Shown here: positions 35,615-50,261 of the stretch, piece by piece
Layout of the letters: each line of letters starts with the position of its first letter
Numbering within the stretch: the first letter of the stretch is position 1
From: Escherichia virus TH32
DNA: 64,000 bases
Strand: one strand, 5' to 3'
Sequence record: MT446405.1
Position numbers and translations under genes: made by a program
Notes under the pieces: generated by a model
What the model was told of the DNA's origin: nothing
What the model saw: only the letters and a program-made list of their open reading frames with translations
Databases searched by the model: none

Positions 35615-35774
35615 TGTTGACGTAAATTTACGAAAAATAAAACTGAAAATCAGTTTAATTAAAGTGGCATTGCCGCCATAGTTTTTAGTTGCTACTGGCG
35701 GCGACTGAAGGCATAATTAAGTTATCCCAAACGGGGGAATATAAAATAAACTAATTTATTTAAGGACTGTGAAC

Positions 35775-36614
35775 ATGGCCGAAGCAATCAAAGTATTATC
35801 TAAAGAAGAAAAACAAGCAGCTGCAGCAGAACGTCGTCGCGTGGCTGAAGAGAAACGCCTGGCTAAAAAGAAAGAAGCCGAAGAAAAACGCCAGAAGCGT
35901 GAGCAGGAAAAACAAGCCAAGCGTGAAGAAGCTGCGCTGAAACGCAAGCAGGCTGCTGATGAGAAGGCTCAGAAGCGTGCTGAAGAAGCGGCTAAGAAAG
36001 CTAAAGAGCGTGCAGAAAAGGCTGCTGCTAAGAAAGCAGAGCGTGAAGCCGCTAAAGCAGCAAAAGAAATCGAAAAGGCAAAGGCTAAAGAAGAAGCCAA
36101 GCGCCTGAAAGCTGAACAAGCTGCTGCTAAGAAAGCAGAGCGTGATCAAGCCCGTGCTGCAGCGAAGGCCGAAAAAGAAAAGGCCAAAGAAGAAGCTAAA
36201 GCGAAACGCAAGGCAGAGCGTGAAGCTGCTAAGATTGCGGCGAAAGAAGCTGCAGAACAGCAGAAAGAACAGCGCAAGAAAGAAGCTGAAGAGCGTCGCA
36301 AAGCGATTGCAGAGCGTAAAGCCGCCAAGAAAGCTAACGGTCAGCGTCGCGCTAAAGCAACTCACTTTGTTTACACCGGAAACGGCCTGAGCCAGCCGCA
36401 AGAGCATTCCACCCGTGGACGCGTTCTGGCGGCGATCAAAGAAGGCGAAATCGGTCAGCCGCAGTCTATCGACGAGCTGGGTGAAAAAGTTAAAGATCAG
36501 CTGTTTGGCGCTTCCGTTCGCTCTTACCTGAGCAAGCTGGAAGAGATGGGCCACATCGAGTTCATCGATGTTGAATCCAATGACGATGCCGAAGACGGTG
36601 ATCAAGCGGAATAA
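35775..36614 (+). CDS. Lys/Ala/Glu-rich repeat protein with globular C-terminal domain
   Basis: About 190 aa of KEEAEEKRQKREQEKQAKREEAALKRKQ...-type low complexity, then a 90 aa non-repetitive tail; antisense ORF 35796..36605 judged an artefact. Confidence 0.6.
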   Translation: MAEAIKVLSKEEKQAAAAERRRVAEEKRLAKKKEAEEKRQKREQEKQAKREEAALKRKQAADEKAQKRAEEAAKKAKERAEKAAAKKAEREAAKAAKEIEKAKAKEEAKRLKAEQAAAKKAERDQARAAAKAEKEKAKEEAKAKRKAEREAAKIAAKEAAEQQKEQRKKEAEERRKAIAERKAAKKANGQRRAKATHFVYTGNGLSQPQEHSTRGRVLAAIKEGEIGQPQSIDELGEKVKDQLFGASVRSYLSKLEEMGHIEFIDVESNDDAEDGDQAE

Positions 36615-36748: not shown

Positions 36749-37744
36749 ATGAACATGAAACAACCTGTAATGATTATCGGCGGCGGACTGGCAGGACTTA
36801 TCACCGCTTGCCACTTCCCAAACTCCATTGTGTACGAAGCAGGGGAACGAGCGCCACAGCACAAGGCGCTACTACGCTTTCGCGGCGAAGAAGTAAGCCG
36901 TATTACCGGAATCCCTTTTAAGGCCGTGACAGTTGACAAGGCTGTGTATTTTCGCGGCAACTACTACCACGACCATTGCCCAATCAACCTTGCCAATATG
37001 TATTCCATGAAGGTCACCAATCAGTTTGGCAGCCGTTCAATCATGAAGCTTAAAACTGCAACGCGTTATATTGCGCCTGATGACTTTTATGATCAACTTG
37101 TCGATAAGCTTGGCGACCGTATATTCTTCAATACTCCGGTCGACACCCTCTGCGGCTATAGCGAGACGCCAATCATCAATACATCGCCGCTGCCCGTCAT
37201 GATGAAGCTTGCTGGTATTGATCAAAAGCTCGACTTCTCGTTTGATAAGGCAAATATACGCGTTTATCGTTTTAAGATTAAGCGCAAGTGTGAACTGTAT
37301 CAAACAATTTACTTCCCTGACTATTCTGTAAGGACTTACCGCGCATCAATTACTGGTGACACGCTGATTATCGAAACAATTCCATTGGTAAGCGTCAGCG
37401 CGGCAGCAGTTGAAGCCGCTGGCGGCATTACCCGTTATCGCGACATGAAGTTGCGTGCAGAAGTGGACGAAGTTCTGACCGCTTTTGGTCTTTCATGGAA
37501 TGACATCTCTTTGGAAGAAGTTGAAAAGGTTGACCAGAAGTATGGCAAGATTGTCGACATTCCTAAAGACTTGCGCCACGCCTTACTGCTCCAGCTGACC
37601 ATGGATTTGAACGTATTTAGTGTCGGTCGCTTTGCTACTTGGCGAAACATTTTGCTTGATGACGTTGCTCATGACCTTGTTGAAGTTGAAAAACTCATCA
37701 AAGCAAATAACTATCAAAAATTTGCTTATATTGCTAATAAATAA
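36749..37744 (+). CDS. FAD/NAD(P)-binding Rossmann-fold protein
   Basis: N-terminal VMIIGGGLAGLITA (GxGxxG dinucleotide-binding motif); 331 aa. Confidence 0.5.
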   Translation: MNMKQPVMIIGGGLAGLITACHFPNSIVYEAGERAPQHKALLRFRGEEVSRITGIPFKAVTVDKAVYFRGNYYHDHCPINLANMYSMKVTNQFGSRSIMKLKTATRYIAPDDFYDQLVDKLGDRIFFNTPVDTLCGYSETPIINTSPLPVMMKLAGIDQKLDFSFDKANIRVYRFKIKRKCELYQTIYFPDYSVRTYRASITGDTLIIETIPLVSVSAAAVEAAGGITRYRDMKLRAEVDEVLTAFGLSWNDISLEEVEKVDQKYGKIVDIPKDLRHALLLQLTMDLNVFSVGRFATWRNILLDDVAHDLVEVEKLIKANNYQKFAYIANK

Positions 37745-37809: not shown

Positions 37810-38256
37810 ATGAAACGAATCACTGGAATCGCGCTTGCCGCGACTGCTATTCTCGGAACCATGTATATGGAAGCGACTGAAGCCGCTGTCCGTACTTCCG
37901 ATTCAATCGCCGTGTATGATTGCGAAGCGATGGACGGTAAAACCGCAGCAACCACTGGCGCAACTATCACAGCTTACATCGGCGTGAACGAGCAAGAAGG
38001 TTTGAACATTCAGATTCAAGGATTCACAGGGAAAGGTGCCAACCGTACTCCGTGGATGCAACGTTTCACTTTCGTTCAGCCTCGTTCAACTGGCGGCTTC
38101 ATCAACCTCATTGGTGAAAACCGTTCTGGTGCAGAAATCTTTACATCAATGAGTTCTAATGATGAACCAAAGAAAAGTTTTCAGTTGCTTTATAACGCAC
38201 AATTCGTTTATCATTGCACCTTCTCTGGTGATCAGCAACTAGTGAATTACCGTTAA
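37810..38256 (+). CDS. secreted/periplasmic protein (signal peptide)
   Basis: N-terminal MKRITGIALAATAILGT... signal-like sequence; AGAGGA RBS. Confidence 0.45.
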   Translation: MKRITGIALAATAILGTMYMEATEAAVRTSDSIAVYDCEAMDGKTAATTGATITAYIGVNEQEGLNIQIQGFTGKGANRTPWMQRFTFVQPRSTGGFINLIGENRSGAEIFTSMSSNDEPKKSFQLLYNAQFVYHCTFSGDQQLVNYR

Positions 38257-38269
38257 TAGGATAATTAAA

Positions 38270-39100
38270 ATGAAAGTTGAATTAATTCGATACACCCAAA
38301 ATGCACTTGACCTTTTGCTGGAAACAAAGAACACGCGCATGACTGGCAAGCCCGTCTCTGAGATGACAGAATCAGAGAAGCAAGAGCACTGGCGCTACAT
38401 GCTTGACACCATCAAGTCACCTTTCGACTTTGTTGACTATATCTTTGACATCACTGATGTATCAAAGAATATGACTCATCAAATGGTGCGCACACGAACA
38501 GGTGCATATCAAGAACGAACAAGCCGCGCTCAGGAGTCTTCTGCCTTTGATGCGATTCGTCCGAAGGCATTTTCACACCAAAATCCAGAGTTGATTGATC
38601 ACTGTGAAGCATTTGGAACTGATGAAGAGCAACAATCTTTACTTCAAAAGCAATACTTAGCAGAGAAGTGGGATGACGCAATGGCGACTATCGATGCTTT
38701 GTATCAAGAACTTCGCGCGGCTGGCGCAGAGATTCAAGATGCACGTGCCGTGTTGCCTTCTAATATGCAAACGCATATCATGGCAAAGTTCAACTTGCGC
38801 ACCCTGCAGCAAATGGCCTCTAACCGCTTGTGCACGCGCACTCAAGGCGAGTATCAAGAAGTATTCCGTGCAATGGTTGCGGAAGTCCTTAAGGTGCACC
38901 CGTGGGCTAATCCTTTACTACAGCCGCAGTGCATCGGTATGGGTAAGTGCGCATTTCCTCGTCACGGTAAGGCCCATTGCCCTTGGTATCGTGATTGGAT
39001 GGATACCACGGCACAGCAAGAAGAGTTGCGCATCCAGTTTTGGAGTGCAATGCCAATCACCAACAATCCAGTTGCTAAAGATGGAGTATCAAAAGGATGA
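38270..39100 (+). CDS. ThyX-like (flavin-dependent thymidylate synthase family) protein, divergent
   Basis: VRTRTGAYQERTSR aligns with the ThyX signature RHRxxSYNExSxR but with His replaced by Thr. Confidence 0.4.
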   Translation: MKVELIRYTQNALDLLLETKNTRMTGKPVSEMTESEKQEHWRYMLDTIKSPFDFVDYIFDITDVSKNMTHQMVRTRTGAYQERTSRAQESSAFDAIRPKAFSHQNPELIDHCEAFGTDEEQQSLLQKQYLAEKWDDAMATIDALYQELRAAGAEIQDARAVLPSNMQTHIMAKFNLRTLQQMASNRLCTRTQGEYQEVFRAMVAEVLKVHPWANPLLQPQCIGMGKCAFPRHGKAHCPWYRDWMDTTAQQEELRIQFWSAMPITNNPVAKDGVSKG

Positions 39101-39969
39101 GCATTAAAAACAGCGAAATCTTAAACGTATTCGACCTTGACGGAACGCTGTTTGATGACCGTTGGCGCTTAGACCGCATCAAGGTGGCAGGTCCGTTGTC
39201 AGACTATGATGACTATCACAGCGGTATTGGTTATGATCAGTTCTATCCTCACATTGCATCAGCAGTAGAGGCTGCATCTCTTCGCGGTGAGGCGGTTGAA
39301 TATTGGACTGCAAGACCAGAAAAATACAGACAAGTGACTTTTGAGCGTCTGGACAATGTTTTCCCTTTTGATGAATTTACAATCAAGATGAGAGACTCTG
39401 GCGACAAACGTCCATCAACTATTATGAAATCTGCATGGCTATCGCACGCTTTGCGGCACGGCGATTATCGAATCATCAATGTATTCGACGACCGACAAGA
39501 CGTACTCGCGCGGATGCAAGATGAAGCATTGTATTATAACTCCGTTGCTCAAAATAAAATCGCTTTTACATTTAATCTTTGCAAAGCAGGTGAAGTGGTG
39601 CAACAATTAGCAATTGATCCAAGCGCAACAGGGCAAGAAGATACTAAGGCTGTGGAAGTTGAACAATCTCCGGCAACTGCCGCCGATATTCTTGATGCGA
39701 TGGCCGCGACCTTCCGTGAGCGCAACGCCGTTTATGGCGATAACGCTGTGATGGTGGGCCAGGTGATGCAAGTTCTCTTCCCTAATGGCGTCACGTTGAA
39801 AACGCCGGAAGACTACCACATGTGGCACCTCTTCGAGCTTAAGATTGTCAAGCTTACACGCTTCGCAATCAGCGGCCTGAAGCACGAAGACTCTATACAC
39901 GATGATGGTGTTTACAGCGCCATGTGTGAACGTCTTGTGAACACCCATAATATTAATTTCAATAAATAG
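39097..39969 (+). CDS. HAD-superfamily phosphatase domain protein (nucleotidase candidate)
   Basis: Motif I VFDLDGTLFDD; motif IV-like INVFDDRQD; extra C-terminal domain of about 120 aa. Confidence 0.6.
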   Translation: MSIKNSEILNVFDLDGTLFDDRWRLDRIKVAGPLSDYDDYHSGIGYDQFYPHIASAVEAASLRGEAVEYWTARPEKYRQVTFERLDNVFPFDEFTIKMRDSGDKRPSTIMKSAWLSHALRHGDYRIINVFDDRQDVLARMQDEALYYNSVAQNKIAFTFNLCKAGEVVQQLAIDPSATGQEDTKAVEVEQSPATAADILDAMAATFRERNAVYGDNAVMVGQVMQVLFPNGVTLKTPEDYHMWHLFELKIVKLTRFAISGLKHEDSIHDDGVYSAMCERLVNTHNINFNK

Positions 39970-40034: not shown

Positions 40035-40718
40035 ATGAAAAAGGTAATTGTTGTAACAGGTGCCAATTCCGGTCTTGGTAAATCTATTTTTGACACCCTT
40101 GGCGCTTACGGTCACGAAGTCGTCGGAATCGATTTAGAGAACGGCTATGACATTCGTAACGCAAAACAGATGAAAGAACTTCTTAGCGGTTACGACGTAG
40201 AAGGCTTGATCAACTGTGCTGGCGTAAACTCTAACAACTGGTTTGAAGACGTCGATTATGAAGAGTTTAATCGCGTTATGCATACTAACGCATTCTCTTT
40301 CGTCAACACAACACAGGCTGCGTTGAAAAGTCTTGTCGATAATAAAGGCTTTGTTATTAACATTGTCTCTAACGCCGCGCATATTCCTATGACGTCCAGT
40401 TTGTGCTATAATGCATCCAAGGCCGCTGCGCTTATGATCACTAAGCAGATGGCGCACGAGCTTACGCCTAAATACGGTATTACGGTATTCTCTATTAGTC
40501 CGAACAAGTTGCGCGGCACTGGCATGTCTAAACAGATTGAAGATGCTGTTTGTGCAACTCGCGGGTGGACCCCTGAGTATGCCGCTGAATACCAGAAAAA
40601 GGCATTGATGAACGGATTGGAGACTGAGCCGCAAGTAATTGCTGACTTCATTCGCCATATCTTAATTACGGGCGCATGGCGCTTTATGTCTGGTACTGAT
40701 ATTCCATTTGGGAAATAA
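40035..40718 (+). CDS. short-chain dehydrogenase/reductase (SDR)
   Basis: TGANSGLGKS cofactor motif, NAG-like segment, catalytic YNASK (YxxxK). Confidence 0.8.
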   Translation: MKKVIVVTGANSGLGKSIFDTLGAYGHEVVGIDLENGYDIRNAKQMKELLSGYDVEGLINCAGVNSNNWFEDVDYEEFNRVMHTNAFSFVNTTQAALKSLVDNKGFVINIVSNAAHIPMTSSLCYNASKAAALMITKQMAHELTPKYGITVFSISPNKLRGTGMSKQIEDAVCATRGWTPEYAAEYQKKALMNGLETEPQVIADFIRHILITGAWRFMSGTDIPFGK

Positions 40719-41070: not shown

Positions 41071-41622
41071 ATGCCACATTTTAAAATTGAACAAATCGCC
41101 CTGTCAATTCCAGATGCTCAGCGCGCACAGGATTTCTTGGCTAAAATCGGCCTGACAGAATGGTTCCATGATCATGTTGTTGCTACTGGTCGCGTATTTG
41201 AAGCTGATGACTTTAAAGGTCGTCGCGACGATTGCACCAATGAAGCTGACTTGCGCTTCAACTATCAGGCTGGCAACGGTACTGATGGCAGAGCTGGTAA
41301 GCCTCTTGAGCTTGAAATCCTTGACTACACAATGGGCTGCAACTGGATTAACGAAAACATCGAATATATCGATGCGCATGACAATCAGGTCAGCCACCTT
41401 GGCATGCACGTGACTGCCGCTGAACTTGCTGAATGGCGTAAGTTCTTTAAAGAAGAAGGTATTCAGGTTGCACAGGAAGTTGTAACTGACTCTCATACCA
41501 ACCCGAACATTGCTGGTCAACGTCGTTACAACTATGTGATCTTTGATACGCGTGAAATCATCGGCGTTGATTTGAAGTTTATCGTGCGCTTGAATCAAGA
41601 CGGTACTCCGTACACCGTATAA
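41071..41622 (+). CDS. VOC/glyoxalase-like fold protein (putative)
   Basis: N-terminal IEQIALSIPDAQRAQDFLAKIGL resembles the first beta-alpha-beta unit of glyoxalase/bleomycin-resistance proteins; weak. Confidence 0.3.
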   Translation: MPHFKIEQIALSIPDAQRAQDFLAKIGLTEWFHDHVVATGRVFEADDFKGRRDDCTNEADLRFNYQAGNGTDGRAGKPLELEILDYTMGCNWINENIEYIDAHDNQVSHLGMHVTAAELAEWRKFFKEEGIQVAQEVVTDSHTNPNIAGQRRYNYVIFDTREIIGVDLKFIVRLNQDGTPYTV

Positions 41623-49152: not shown

Positions 49153-49671
49153 ATGATAGAAAGAATTGTACCGCTCCTGAAGATTCTTGCCCTTGTTGGC
49201 GCGTTTGCCGCTGGATCATACGTTGAAGACCTGCAGCAAACCAACGCATCACTGACCAAGGATAATCAATATCTGAAATCGCTTAATGAGCGTAAGGACA
49301 AGATAAATGCACTCGAAGAGCAAATTGCATCTTTACAGGTTGAATCGGCATCGGCATATGAGAAAGGTCGCCAGGAAGCGCAACTGGTTGCTGATGACAC
49401 TATTGCTCGTTACAAGTCTGGGAATATCAAGCTGCGCGCGCAACTCAGCTGCTCCCGTGAGTTACTCAGGCGTGTGCCCGACTCTGCGACCACTGGACGC
49501 CTCTCTATCCCAGAAGGAAACTGTGGACTATCAGAAGATGATGTCAGATTTCTTGTTCAGTTCGCCGCAGAAACAAATCGATTAAAAGAGAAAGTTAATA
49601 GCTTGATTGATACTTATAATCAGGCTAAAATAAAAATCGATCAATTCAATGCATCAAAGGAAAATAAATGA
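49153..49671 (+). CDS. Rz: i-spanin (Rz-like)
   Basis: N-terminal TMD (IVPLLKILALVGAFAAGSYV) followed by coiled-coil periplasmic domain; contains embedded out-of-frame lipoprotein ORF. Confidence 0.6.
   Translation: MIERIVPLLKILALVGAFAAGSYVEDLQQTNASLTKDNQYLKSLNERKDKINALEEQIASLQVESASAYEKGRQEAQLVADDTIARYKSGNIKLRAQLSCSRELLRRVPDSATTGRLSIPEGNCGLSEDDVRFLVQFAAETNRLKEKVNSLIDTYNQAKIKIDQFNASKENK
49358..49585 (+). CDS. Rz1: o-spanin (Rz1-like lipoprotein), embedded
   Basis: In +1 frame inside Rz: MRKVARKRNWLLMTLLLVTSLGISS-C lipoprotein signal with lipobox, Pro-containing mature part with second Cys; alternative start 49394. Confidence 0.6.
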   Translation: MRKVARKRNWLLMTLLLVTSLGISSCARNSAAPVSYSGVCPTLRPLDASLSQKETVDYQKMMSDFLFSSPQKQID

Positions 49672-50261
49672 AACAGATTTATGCAAACATTCGCCAGTGG
49701 GCTTCTGACCGTAACATCATCCAAGGTTGCGACCTTAAGGACCAATACCCGAAGCTTATCAGCGAGTTTGGGGAGTTAACCGACCACGTTGATCAACTCC
49801 ATGACCTTGTGTTCTTTGACCCTGAAATTGGATATACAGAGCAGGCCATCTGTGACCTGCAGGCCGCAATCAAGGACGACATTGGTGATTGTCTTGTTGT
49901 GTTAACCATCCTGGCAGCGCAAAACGGTGCTGAAATCGAAAGCATCAATGGCGGCGGTTGTGCCGATAAAGGGGCGCACCCTCATTCATTCATTCTGCGT
50001 TTGGCAAAGACCCTTGGCCGACTTGGTGATGCGGTCGCTAAGAATCAGACCATGGATATTGATGTCACTATCATGGCCGCAGTCGATTATCTTTCTGGTG
50101 TTGCTCACGATTACGGCCTGCGCCTTTCGGACTGTGCCCAGGCGGCTTATGAAGACATCAAGGACCGTAAAGGCGTGATGTATAACGGAACGTTCATCAA
50201 GTCGACTGATTCAACCTATGCTTATGCCATGGAACAAGTAATGAATGAGGGGAAAGAGTGA
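49668..50261 (+). CDS. MazG-like nucleoside triphosphate pyrophosphohydrolase (putative)
   Basis: EFGELTDHV and DIGDCLVVLTILA resemble MazG ExxE / DxxD metal-binding helices. Confidence 0.5.
   Translation: MKQIYANIRQWASDRNIIQGCDLKDQYPKLISEFGELTDHVDQLHDLVFFDPEIGYTEQAICDLQAAIKDDIGDCLVVLTILAAQNGAEIESINGGGCADKGAHPHSFILRLAKTLGRLGDAVAKNQTMDIDVTIMAAVDYLSGVAHDYGLRLSDCAQAAYEDIKDRKGVMYNGTFIKSTDSTYAYAMEQVMNEGKE

Follow-up and report, generated by a model that had tools for sequence, protein, structure and literature searches.

The closest described relatives of the gene considered here, which lies in a 64,000-nucleotide stretch of Escherichia virus TH32 (sequence record MT446405.1; this whole stretch is "the window" below), are the flavin-dependent thymidylate synthases (ThyX or FDTS), such as T. 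maritima TM0449, the M. tuberculosis enzyme, and A674R of PBCV-1. Members of this family are FAD-bound homotetramers that form dTMP from dUMP, methylene-tetrahydrofolate, and NADPH, and they complement thyA. A precedent for the recruitment of this family to pyrimidine nucleotides other than dTMP is PolB of polyoxin biosynthesis, a ThyX-like UMP C5-methylase of bacterial secondary metabolism; we liken it to the phage protein by description, and it is not among the sequence matches from the Protein Data Bank (PDB). In canonical ThyX, the RHR motif hydrogen-bonds the phosphates and ribityl of FAD, and the tyrosine that follows the motif forms a lid over C5 of dUMP and N5 of the flavin (PMC6514825). 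Tyr91 and Ser88 have been described as "strictly conserved" and "critical for activity," with a proposed role in aiding the departure of the carbinolamine hydroxyl; consumption of the carbinolamine is >100-fold slower in the Y91A mutant, and mutation of Tyr91 slows flavin oxidation ~1000-fold (PMC8316439, PMC11940539). His53, in turn, has a stacking contact with the pterin of folate or with the reduced flavin, along with a hydrogen bond to Tyr91 (PMC8316439, PMC11940539, PMC6514825).

Known phage thymidine hypermodification starts from an enzyme of the ThyA family (PMC8989533). In the pathways of M6, ViI, SP10, and phiW-14, a ThyA-like dUMP hydroxymethylase acts along with a 5-hydroxymethyluracil (5-hmU) DNA kinase and tailoring enzymes. 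A further parallel is suggested by MnmE/MnmG, the system that makes 5-carboxymethylaminomethyluridine (cmnm5U) in tRNA, where a nucleophile intercepts the methylene delivered to uracil C5 by flavin and folate, in place of its reduction to a methyl (PMC8989533, PMC10723064). Two reports on phages carrying the gene described below are pertinent. The Wifceviruses, PB1-like E. coli myoviruses of 66-72 kb, resist restriction "without any known protection mechanism" (BASEL collection, 2025). In the Pbunaviruses, which appear as therapeutic phages in a 2025 preprint, the DNA of F8 resists enzymes with TG in their sites, and the DNA of F8 and 14-1 has new thymidine-derived nucleosides of 362 and 390 Da in place of ~25% of T; both phages were reported to be without homologs of known modification genes (PMC12191111). 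We propose, at a probability of roughly 45%, that the ThyX-like protein of these phages is a flavoenzyme that alkylates dUMP at C5 and that has been diverted from making plain dTMP to feeding hypermodification. It is the leading candidate for the enzyme behind the sugar-like thymine modification of the related phages.

38270..39100, + strand: ThyX-like flavoenzyme gene of the RTR, Tyr91-less type, 276 aa with an ATG start (from the open reading frame [ORF], Pfam, fold, and ratio of nonsynonymous to synonymous substitution [dN/dS]).

The window is ~93% identical to Wifcevirus genomes (Escherichia phages FEC19, WFC/WFH, Mansfield, and Bas98-101), and GenBank records all label this gene as a thymidylate synthase. 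The membership of its product in the ThyX family and fold is far past chance. It matches Pfam Thy1 (PF02511) with E=1.8e-29 and 103.3 bits (cutoff 24.8) over profile positions 2-191 of 191, and PHROG 85, "thymidylate synthase," with E=2e-37. An AlphaFold2 model built on 30 homologs (predicted local distance difference test [pLDDT] 85; predicted template-modeling score [pTM] 0.76) retrieves ThyX structures as all of its top 50 PDB matches (TM score 0.72-0.76, E ~1e-10), with T. maritima ThyX (1o26) among the best (E~2.5e-10, TM score 0.75, 215 columns). An earlier sequence-only reading had supposed a ThyX-family member whose fold bears a changed active-site motif, and the profile searches and the comparison of the model with the PDB agree on both counts. 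The score nevertheless stays under the equivalog cutoff of NCBIfam TIGR02170, "thyX" (79.5 vs 87.9 bits).

38480..38533, + strand: altered ThyX signature, residues 71-88, QMVRTRTGAYQERTSRAQ (canonical QWFRHRIASYNELSGRYS), from alignments to T. maritima ThyX.

The residues of the active site were mapped through these alignments. The peptide HQMVRTRTGAYQERTSRAQ corresponds to residues 70-88 of the protein, and its motif, R-T-R-T-G-A-Y-Q-E-R-T-S-R, departs from the RHRxxSxxxxSxR signature in that the three Arg are kept, with His79, Ser83, and Ser88 replaced. Like the described ThyX enzymes, with which it shares the Thy1 family, the fold, and a position among replication genes, the phage protein retains the equivalents of Gln75 (Q71), Arg78 (R74), Arg80 (R76), Tyr84 (Y80), Glu86 (E82), Arg90 (R86), Arg147 (R159), and Arg174 (R186). 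Unlike them, it has His79 replaced by T75 and Ser83 by A79, the two changes that the sequence-only reading had picked out (RHR to RTR and Ser at +3 to Ala). The residue-by-residue alignment claimed in that reading stands for the preserved Tyr and Glu and fails for the SxR pattern, which is out of register: canonical S88-G89-R90 pairs with T84-S85-R86, turning Ser88 into Thr. Further differences that it had not listed are the replacements of Tyr91 by Ala87, His53 by Ile48, His59 by Phe54, Arg74 by His70, and His178 by Arg190, along with four invariant Cys and a 64-residue C-terminal extension; obligate partner genes likewise set the phage protein apart from the described enzymes. Among 30 clade members, R74, T75, R76, G78, Y80, R86, and A87 are invariant, as is Ile48, so that the residues at the Tyr91 and His53 positions are themselves invariant in the clade. 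Even across 40 diverse relatives (26-47% identity), R74, R86, Y145, R159, I170, and R186 are invariant and Q71 nearly so; these four arginines and Q71 are equivalents of residues that contact the nucleotide and the flavin. Between residues 88 and 135, the length of the chain is variable. As the equivalent of the uracil-activating Arg174 is invariant, we argue that the base is still uracil and that a dCMP-like substrate is unlikely.

The genes on either side of the ThyX-like gene turn out to be its constant companions:
36749..37744, + strand: FAD-type flavoprotein, 331 aa, the obligate upstream partner, with a fold like that of UDP-galactopyranose mutase (Glf/UGM), phrog_4828, and GxGxxG at residues 11-16.
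39097..39636, + strand: HAD-superfamily phosphatase of the PNKP-phosphatase type, the N-terminal half of the downstream partner (HAD_PNKP, E=1.4e-8, 35.4 bits, cutoff 27.6).
39637..39969, + strand: probable DUF6378 domain, the C-terminal half of the downstream partner, with invariant Y, K..R, and DS..D.

When loci were fetched from IMG/VR by the ThyX-like protein (40-99% identity), the flavoprotein was present in 78/80, the two exceptions having <1.6 kb of upstream sequence, and both partners were present in 50/50 loci with at least 2.5 kb on each side. Conversely, when viral loci were fetched by the flavoprotein, the ThyX-like gene was found in all 59 of the 59 with at least 3 kb downstream. 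The order flavoprotein, ThyX-like, DUF6378 is fixed (DUF6378 in 60/68), with a median gap of 387 bp. In the ThyX-like proteins of these loci, position 91 is always Ala, Val, or Thr and position 59 always Phe, with T, S, N, and once H at position 79. Hence, the Tyr91-less, Phe59 type of ThyX with a small residue at position 91 occurs only as part of an obligate collinear three-gene module, which is a new finding of this work. The four loci with relatives bearing the canonical or the RQR/Phe91 motif have neither partner. The module recurs in unrelated Rhizobium jumbo phages, and among GenBank phages the host genera of flavoprotein carriers (Pseudomonas, 292; Escherichia, 26; Serratia, 9; Rhizobium, 8) parallel those of the corresponding ThyX-like genes; the flavoprotein does not occur in the phages of Gordonia, Mycobacterium, Microbacterium, Clostridium, and Bacillus with other ThyX types. 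The replacement of His79 by Thr, on which the sequence-only reading had centered, does not discriminate this class: position 79 varies within it, whereas the loss of Tyr91 and His59 is constant, and the one RHR member (L069) has both partners. His79 is thus not the key residue, and its replacement was rejected as the functional switch.

The nearest fold of the upstream partner is that of UGM, a sugar-handling flavoenzyme fold, and the 331-aa protein has the three domains of UGM flavoproteins; no GLF family match was found for it in Pfam at E<=5, nor a PDB sequence match. The HAD half of the downstream partner is present in most module loci, and its DxDxT nucleophile motif is intact (FDLDGT, residues 12-17; DLDGT, 13-17). 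The stop of the ThyX-like gene and the start of this gene overlap as ATGA at 39097-39100, and the two are translationally coupled. Of 24 diverse homologs, 16 match Pfam DUF6378 (PF19905; best E=3.6e-7), but the copy in the window scores weakly (E=0.18); the domain is conserved in Pbunavirus, XcP1, Rhizobium TM40, and metagenomes; a comparison of its profile with the PDB and a literature search returned nothing on its function. Some metagenomic relatives encode the HAD phosphatase (150 aa) and the DUF6378 protein (236 aa) in separate adjacent genes (L011:1832-2994), and the DUF6378 part alone is recognizable in Rhizobium phage TM40.

The altered motif is a property of a widespread clade. RTR is present in every one of the 120 best homologs, the most distant of which is 52% identical (P0106 is counted after reading of the alignment), and a private mutation or sequencing error at His79 was accordingly rejected. 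They come from contigs of ~68-74 kb and from PB1-like phages of Escherichia, Serratia, Erwinia, Pantoea, Burkholderia, and Xanthomonas, and ~290 Pseudomonas Pbunavirus genomes carry a homolog at 49% identity. At E<=1e-3, 1,527 relatives came out of an exhaustive search of 1.84 billion representatives; in the 134 best usable ones, position 79 is T in 71, H in 30, Q in 11, S in 9, and N in 8. Relatives with RHR and Val91 also exist (P0145, P0133, and P0128, on short contigs). Against close relatives, dN/dS is 0.11-0.22; farther out, synonymous sites are saturated and the protein is conserved.

An additional "ThyX-like" type with RQR, Phe91, and four Cys was observed in actinophages (Gordonia phage Rumi gp83, L009; Mycobacterium phage SirHarley gp71, L010; and L006). 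These proteins are of 370-460 aa, with N-terminal extensions and large insertions, and are without the flavoprotein and DUF6378 partners. No cellular genome with the Tyr91-less type as its sole thymidylate synthase was found among 185,579 species genomes of GTDB, a search made with narrow patterns. The lone match there, a 567-bp contig assigned to Xanthomonas pisi DSM 18956 (L005, NZ_JPLE01000177.1), is 99% identical to the 3' end of the coliphage gene and most probably reflects contamination of the assembly by phage or laboratory DNA. Within the scope of these searches, the Tyr91-less, module-bearing clade is virus specific.

Beyond the active-site loop, the protein has the following features:
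38831..38833, + strand: codon of the invariant Cys188, two residues past R186 (the Arg174 equivalent), the first ligand of a putative four-Cys metal site.
38906..39097, + strand: C-terminal extension, residues 213-276 (64 residues), with Cys221, Cys227, Cys237, and a conserved tail NPVAxxGxS.
38930-38932, 38948-38950, and 38978-38980, + strand: codons of the invariant Cys221, Cys227, and Cys237.

The extension is without a counterpart in solved ThyX structures, and no PDB match covers it; model confidence over residues 210-260 is a pLDDT of about 90. The four invariant Cys are spaced C-x32-C-x5-C-x9-C and behave in an all-or-none manner among the 134 best usable relatives (all four in 71, none in 56, mixed in 7). 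Such a pattern is the signature of a single joint site, which presumably binds a metal. We found no report of a metal site in ThyX in the literature, and no solved ThyX has a four-Cys site. The canonical trio His79/Tyr91/His59 occurs together in seven sequences, each of which also has the four Cys. Of these seven, one shares a 90% cluster with a sequence named as the thymidylate synthase of an archaeal metagenome-assembled genome, and another, P0266, has a fully canonical motif and adjoins a FolD-type methylene-tetrahydrofolate (CH2-THF) enzyme and a dNMP kinase; the site is also seen in P0222 and P0270. Given its presence in canonical-motif relatives, the site is older than, and independent of, the active-site changes. 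It occurs in some module-bearing members and is missing from many, and it was, accordingly, rejected as a marker of new function.

Turning to the link with DNA modification, we note that TG accounts for 27% of T in both the F8 and the 14-1 genomes. The reported masses equal 5-hydroxymethyldeoxyuridine (5-hmdU) plus a tetritol or a pentose, respectively, minus water; they equally fit deoxyuridine (dU) plus pentose minus water plus 2H (362.3) and dU plus hexose minus water (390.3). As dU plus CH2O minus water plus 2H gives thymidine, the stoichiometry of ThyX matches the 362/390 case with an aldose in the place of formaldehyde. Under either reading, a carbon substituent must be installed at C5 of deoxyuridine, and the ThyX-like protein is the only recognizable enzyme in these genomes with C5 carbon-installing chemistry. 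The curated Wifcevirus and Pbunavirus records list neither a ThyA homolog nor a 5-hmU DNA kinase, and neither was recovered in Pfam and PHROG scans of the module proteins (a subset of the window ORFs). Our literature search found no paper that links a ThyX homolog with hypermodification. Restriction sites are present in the window (EcoRI, 13; EcoRV, 4; EcoKI, 4), and site avoidance was rejected as the cause of the Wifcevirus resistance to restriction-modification (RM). Over the whole window, some short palindromes are rarer than base composition predicts (GATC, 105 vs ~247; GGATCC, 0 vs ~13; CCGG, 71 vs ~180; GTAC, 133 vs ~247), and others are commoner (AAGCTT, 56 vs ~18; GCGC, 389 vs ~180). 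The anti-END1 protein (14-1 gp88) was considered as a marker of modified DNA; the window has no homolog, which is uninformative, F8 and PB-1 being likewise without one.

Between F8 and 14-1, whose thymidine adducts differ, the ThyX-like protein is 94% and the flavoprotein 97% identical, against 92-100% for most proteins; the more diverged nonstructural genes are HAD/DUF6378 (80%), small flanking ORFs (78-82%), and gp070 (56%). F8 gp070 (L017:33894-35090; the 14-1 counterpart is gp71, L018:33997-35301) is the most diverged nonstructural protein of the pair, and a domain search of it recognized nothing beyond a weak CxxCxGxG-like match. It is a candidate for a specificity or DNA-level factor.

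Taking these findings together, an altered chemistry, the alternative that the sequence-only reading had raised, is plausible in view of the loss of Tyr91 and Ser88, the locked module, and the hypermodified thymidine of Pbunavirus; a different base in the substrate, as in dCMP, is unlikely, as noted above. In the route that we envisage, the enzyme would still bind FAD and dUMP, and a carbon, either a one-carbon unit or the carbon of a sugar, would be joined to uracil C5 through a flavin N5 adduct. With the closing and proton-relay apparatus of Tyr91 and His53 gone, the intermediate might not simply be reduced to a methyl, and a C5-functionalized dUMP would be delivered, in a manner akin to MnmE/MnmG; this likeness is one of mechanism only and is inferred for the phage enzyme, MnmEG having an unrelated fold, a tRNA substrate, and different partners. 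The protein would thus be the central enzyme of a module comprising the UGM-fold flavoprotein, itself, and HAD/DUF6378, with 5-hydroxymethyl-dUMP or a 5-polyhydroxyalkyl-dUMP as the product. Such a C5-substituted dUMP could be the precursor of the sugar-derived hypermodified thymidine of Pbunavirus, and an equivalent modification would probably shield Wifcevirus DNA from restriction. Three parts of this proposal go beyond what was observed: a product other than plain dTMP, the making of a modification precursor by the module, and the modification of Wifcevirus DNA. In common with the known hypermodification pathways, the Pbunaviruses have a C5-derivatized, restriction-blocking thymidine and, in their replication region, a gene for a predicted C5 one-carbon enzyme acting on nucleotides; unlike in M6, ViI, SP10, and phiW-14, the C5 enzyme belongs to the unrelated ThyX family and the adducts are a sugar or polyol.

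A more far-reaching variant, which we hold to be improbable, is that an aldose, probably an aldose phosphate, replaces formaldehyde/CH2-THF in the reaction. Here the UGM-fold partner or the ThyX flavin would form an iminium between flavin N5 and sugar C1, as in UGM catalysis, and C5 of dUMP would attack it; the adduct might then be reduced to an open-chain 5-(1-deoxyalditol-1-yl)-dUMP or be released unreduced as a C-glycoside, with the HAD phosphatase finally stripping the sugar phosphate. The isobaric fit with the reported 362.3 and 390.3 nucleosides is exact, and the variant would give a role to all three components of the module.

Several points weigh against a diversion from dTMP synthesis. 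The chief weakness is that partial, TG-specific modification implies a DNA-level, sequence-reading step for which a pool enzyme alone is insufficient, and no DNA glycosyltransferase, 5-hmU DNA kinase, or dTTP-exclusion enzyme was recognized. The modification data come from a single preprint whose proposed structures are tentative (PMC12191111), with nucleosides from Pbunavirus F8 and 14-1 only, so that the Wifcevirus part is by extension; the RM resistance of Wifcevirus could also stem from protein inhibitors. The function proposed for the clade is read from sequence, context, and model. Further, thymine stays the majority base (~75% of T in Pbunavirus DNA is plain thymidine), the phage needs dTMP, and a thymidylate synthase of its own is the simplest reason for a ThyX homolog.

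The last of these leads to the main rival reading, which we consider serious though somewhat less likely, namely, that this is an ordinary, highly divergent ThyX that converts dUMP to dTMP and boosts thymidylate supply in very fast phage replication. The lost residues would then have been replaced functionally by others specific to the clade, for which the clade-invariant K66, N67, H70, and Y80 could serve as offsets to the loss of Tyr91 and His53, and the partners would act in flavin reduction, in nucleotide-pool housekeeping, or in an unrelated pathway sharing the operon. This fits the clear Thy1 family and fold membership and the thymidylate synthase label in GenBank, the invariance of the arginines contacting dUMP and FAD along with the kept Gln75 equivalent, the position in the replication module near a Pol III alpha-type polymerase in all relatives, and the annotation of no other thymidylate synthase in Wifcevirus or Pbunavirus records. 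Distant relatives likewise lie in ordinary dTMP-supply contexts: Tyr91-less relatives of the RQR/Phe91 type adjoin dCMP deaminase, the canonical-motif P0266 has FolD and a dNMP kinase beside it, and Rhizobium TM40 has dUTPase and ribonucleotide reductase (RNR) near its ThyX-like gene. Against it, Tyr91, whose mutation brings a 100-1000-fold kinetic loss, is an invariant Ala, Ser88, also described as critical, is gone, the folate-stacking His53 is Ile, and the score falls under the equivalog cutoff. Moreover, it leaves the two obligate collinear partners (50/50 and 59/59) without an evident need; relatives with a canonical motif do without them, and the clade was not found, within the narrow search patterns used, in cellular genomes, where a role as sole synthase would show.

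It is less likely that the substrate is other than free dUMP, such as UMP (on which PolB acts), a nucleotide sugar, or uracil/deoxyuridine within nucleic acid, with the opened loop admitting a bulkier molecule. A small residue for the Tyr91 lid in all members, the variable length of the 88-135 segment, and the sequence-specific Pbunavirus modification, which would suit a DNA-level enzyme, are consistent with this. However, ThyX chemistry needs an unsubstituted C5, which excludes thymine in DNA, and a TG-specific deoxyuridine in DNA has no plausible origin; every arginine that binds phosphate or uracil in the mononucleotide site is kept, and a Pfam scan of the protein detected no nucleic-acid-binding domain. 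Finally, a catalytically dead ThyX-fold protein serving as a nucleotide- or flavin-binding regulator or scaffold, the regulatory pseudoenzyme of the sequence-only reading, is very improbable and not supported, for although several canonical catalytic residues are gone, their replacements are equally invariant and not drift, the substrate-binding arginines are invariant over deep divergence (40 relatives) with dN/dS of 0.11-0.22, which speaks against a decaying gene or inert pseudoenzyme and led us to reject both, the new invariant four-Cys site adjoins the Arg174 equivalent, and the gene is translationally coupled to that of an enzyme with an intact HAD motif.

The remaining features of the locus are as follows:
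38258..38261, + strand: AGGA ribosome-binding site of the ThyX-like gene, 8 nt 5' of the ATG (read from the sequence).
35769..36614, + strand: phrog_4765 protein, an upstream neighbor (PHROG 4765, E=1.9e-84), from PB1-like phages only.
40035..40718, + strand: short-chain dehydrogenase/reductase (SDR), accessory (Pfam adh_short, E=4e-32).
41071..41622, + strand: glyoxalase/VOC-superfamily-like protein, accessory (weak, sub-cutoff Glyoxalase_4 match, E=0.0023; GenBank note for Mansfield).

The ThyX-like gene is embedded in a + strand operon of the replication module, where it is preceded by a Dda-like helicase, the phrog_4765 protein, the 331-aa FAD-type protein, and a 148-aa signal-peptide-like protein and followed by the HAD phosphatase/C-terminal domain fusion, the SDR, a small ORF, the glyoxalase-like protein, a 3'-5' exonuclease, and the Pol III alpha-type polymerase. 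The SDR and glyoxalase-like genes always occur together, in about half of the module loci including the window, and are absent from Pbunavirus; they may tailor the adduct, in which case any modification in Wifcevirus may be unlike the one in Pbunavirus. The phrog_4765 protein is partly divergent between F8 and 14-1. The 148-aa ORF (37810-38256, +), which in Wifcevirus sits between the flavoprotein and the ThyX-like gene and has a hydrophobic signal-peptide-like segment at its N terminus, gave no Pfam, PHROG, or NCBIfam match, and Pbunavirus has unrelated small ORFs in its place. Elsewhere in the window, a MazG-like nucleotide pyrophosphohydrolase is encoded at 49668-50261 (+; PHROG 1992, E=1.9e-63). 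It is conserved in Wifcevirus and Pbunavirus, also adjoins actinophage ThyX-like genes, and could shape the dNTP pool, e.g., by clearing a canonical or aberrant dNTP.

One gene set is thus common to Pbunavirus, Wifcevirus, and hundreds of uncultured viral contigs, and it bears on two observations, the restriction resistance and the thymidine-derived nucleosides, that have so far been without a genetic explanation. Should our proposal be refuted, there would still be a large viral ThyX subfamily working without the "essential" Tyr91 and His53 and with an unrecognized four-Cys site, which would be informative for the mechanism of ThyX. We believe, however, that this subfamily, with its rebuilt active-site loop, has a realistic chance of providing the entry enzyme of a new hypermodification pathway. 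In that event, a drug-target enzyme family would have a new reaction outcome, and the combination of a Tyr91-less ThyX, a UGM-fold flavoprotein, and DUF6378 would serve as a sequence marker for modified genomes, with a bearing on phage therapy, on the sequencing and cloning of such phages, and on defense systems that sense modified DNA. If the aldose variant were true, it would reveal a hitherto unknown way to hypermodified DNA bases by C-C bond formation. Confirmation of our main proposal would make the module the first known case of DNA hypermodification built on the flavin-dependent ThyX branch in place of the ThyA branch.

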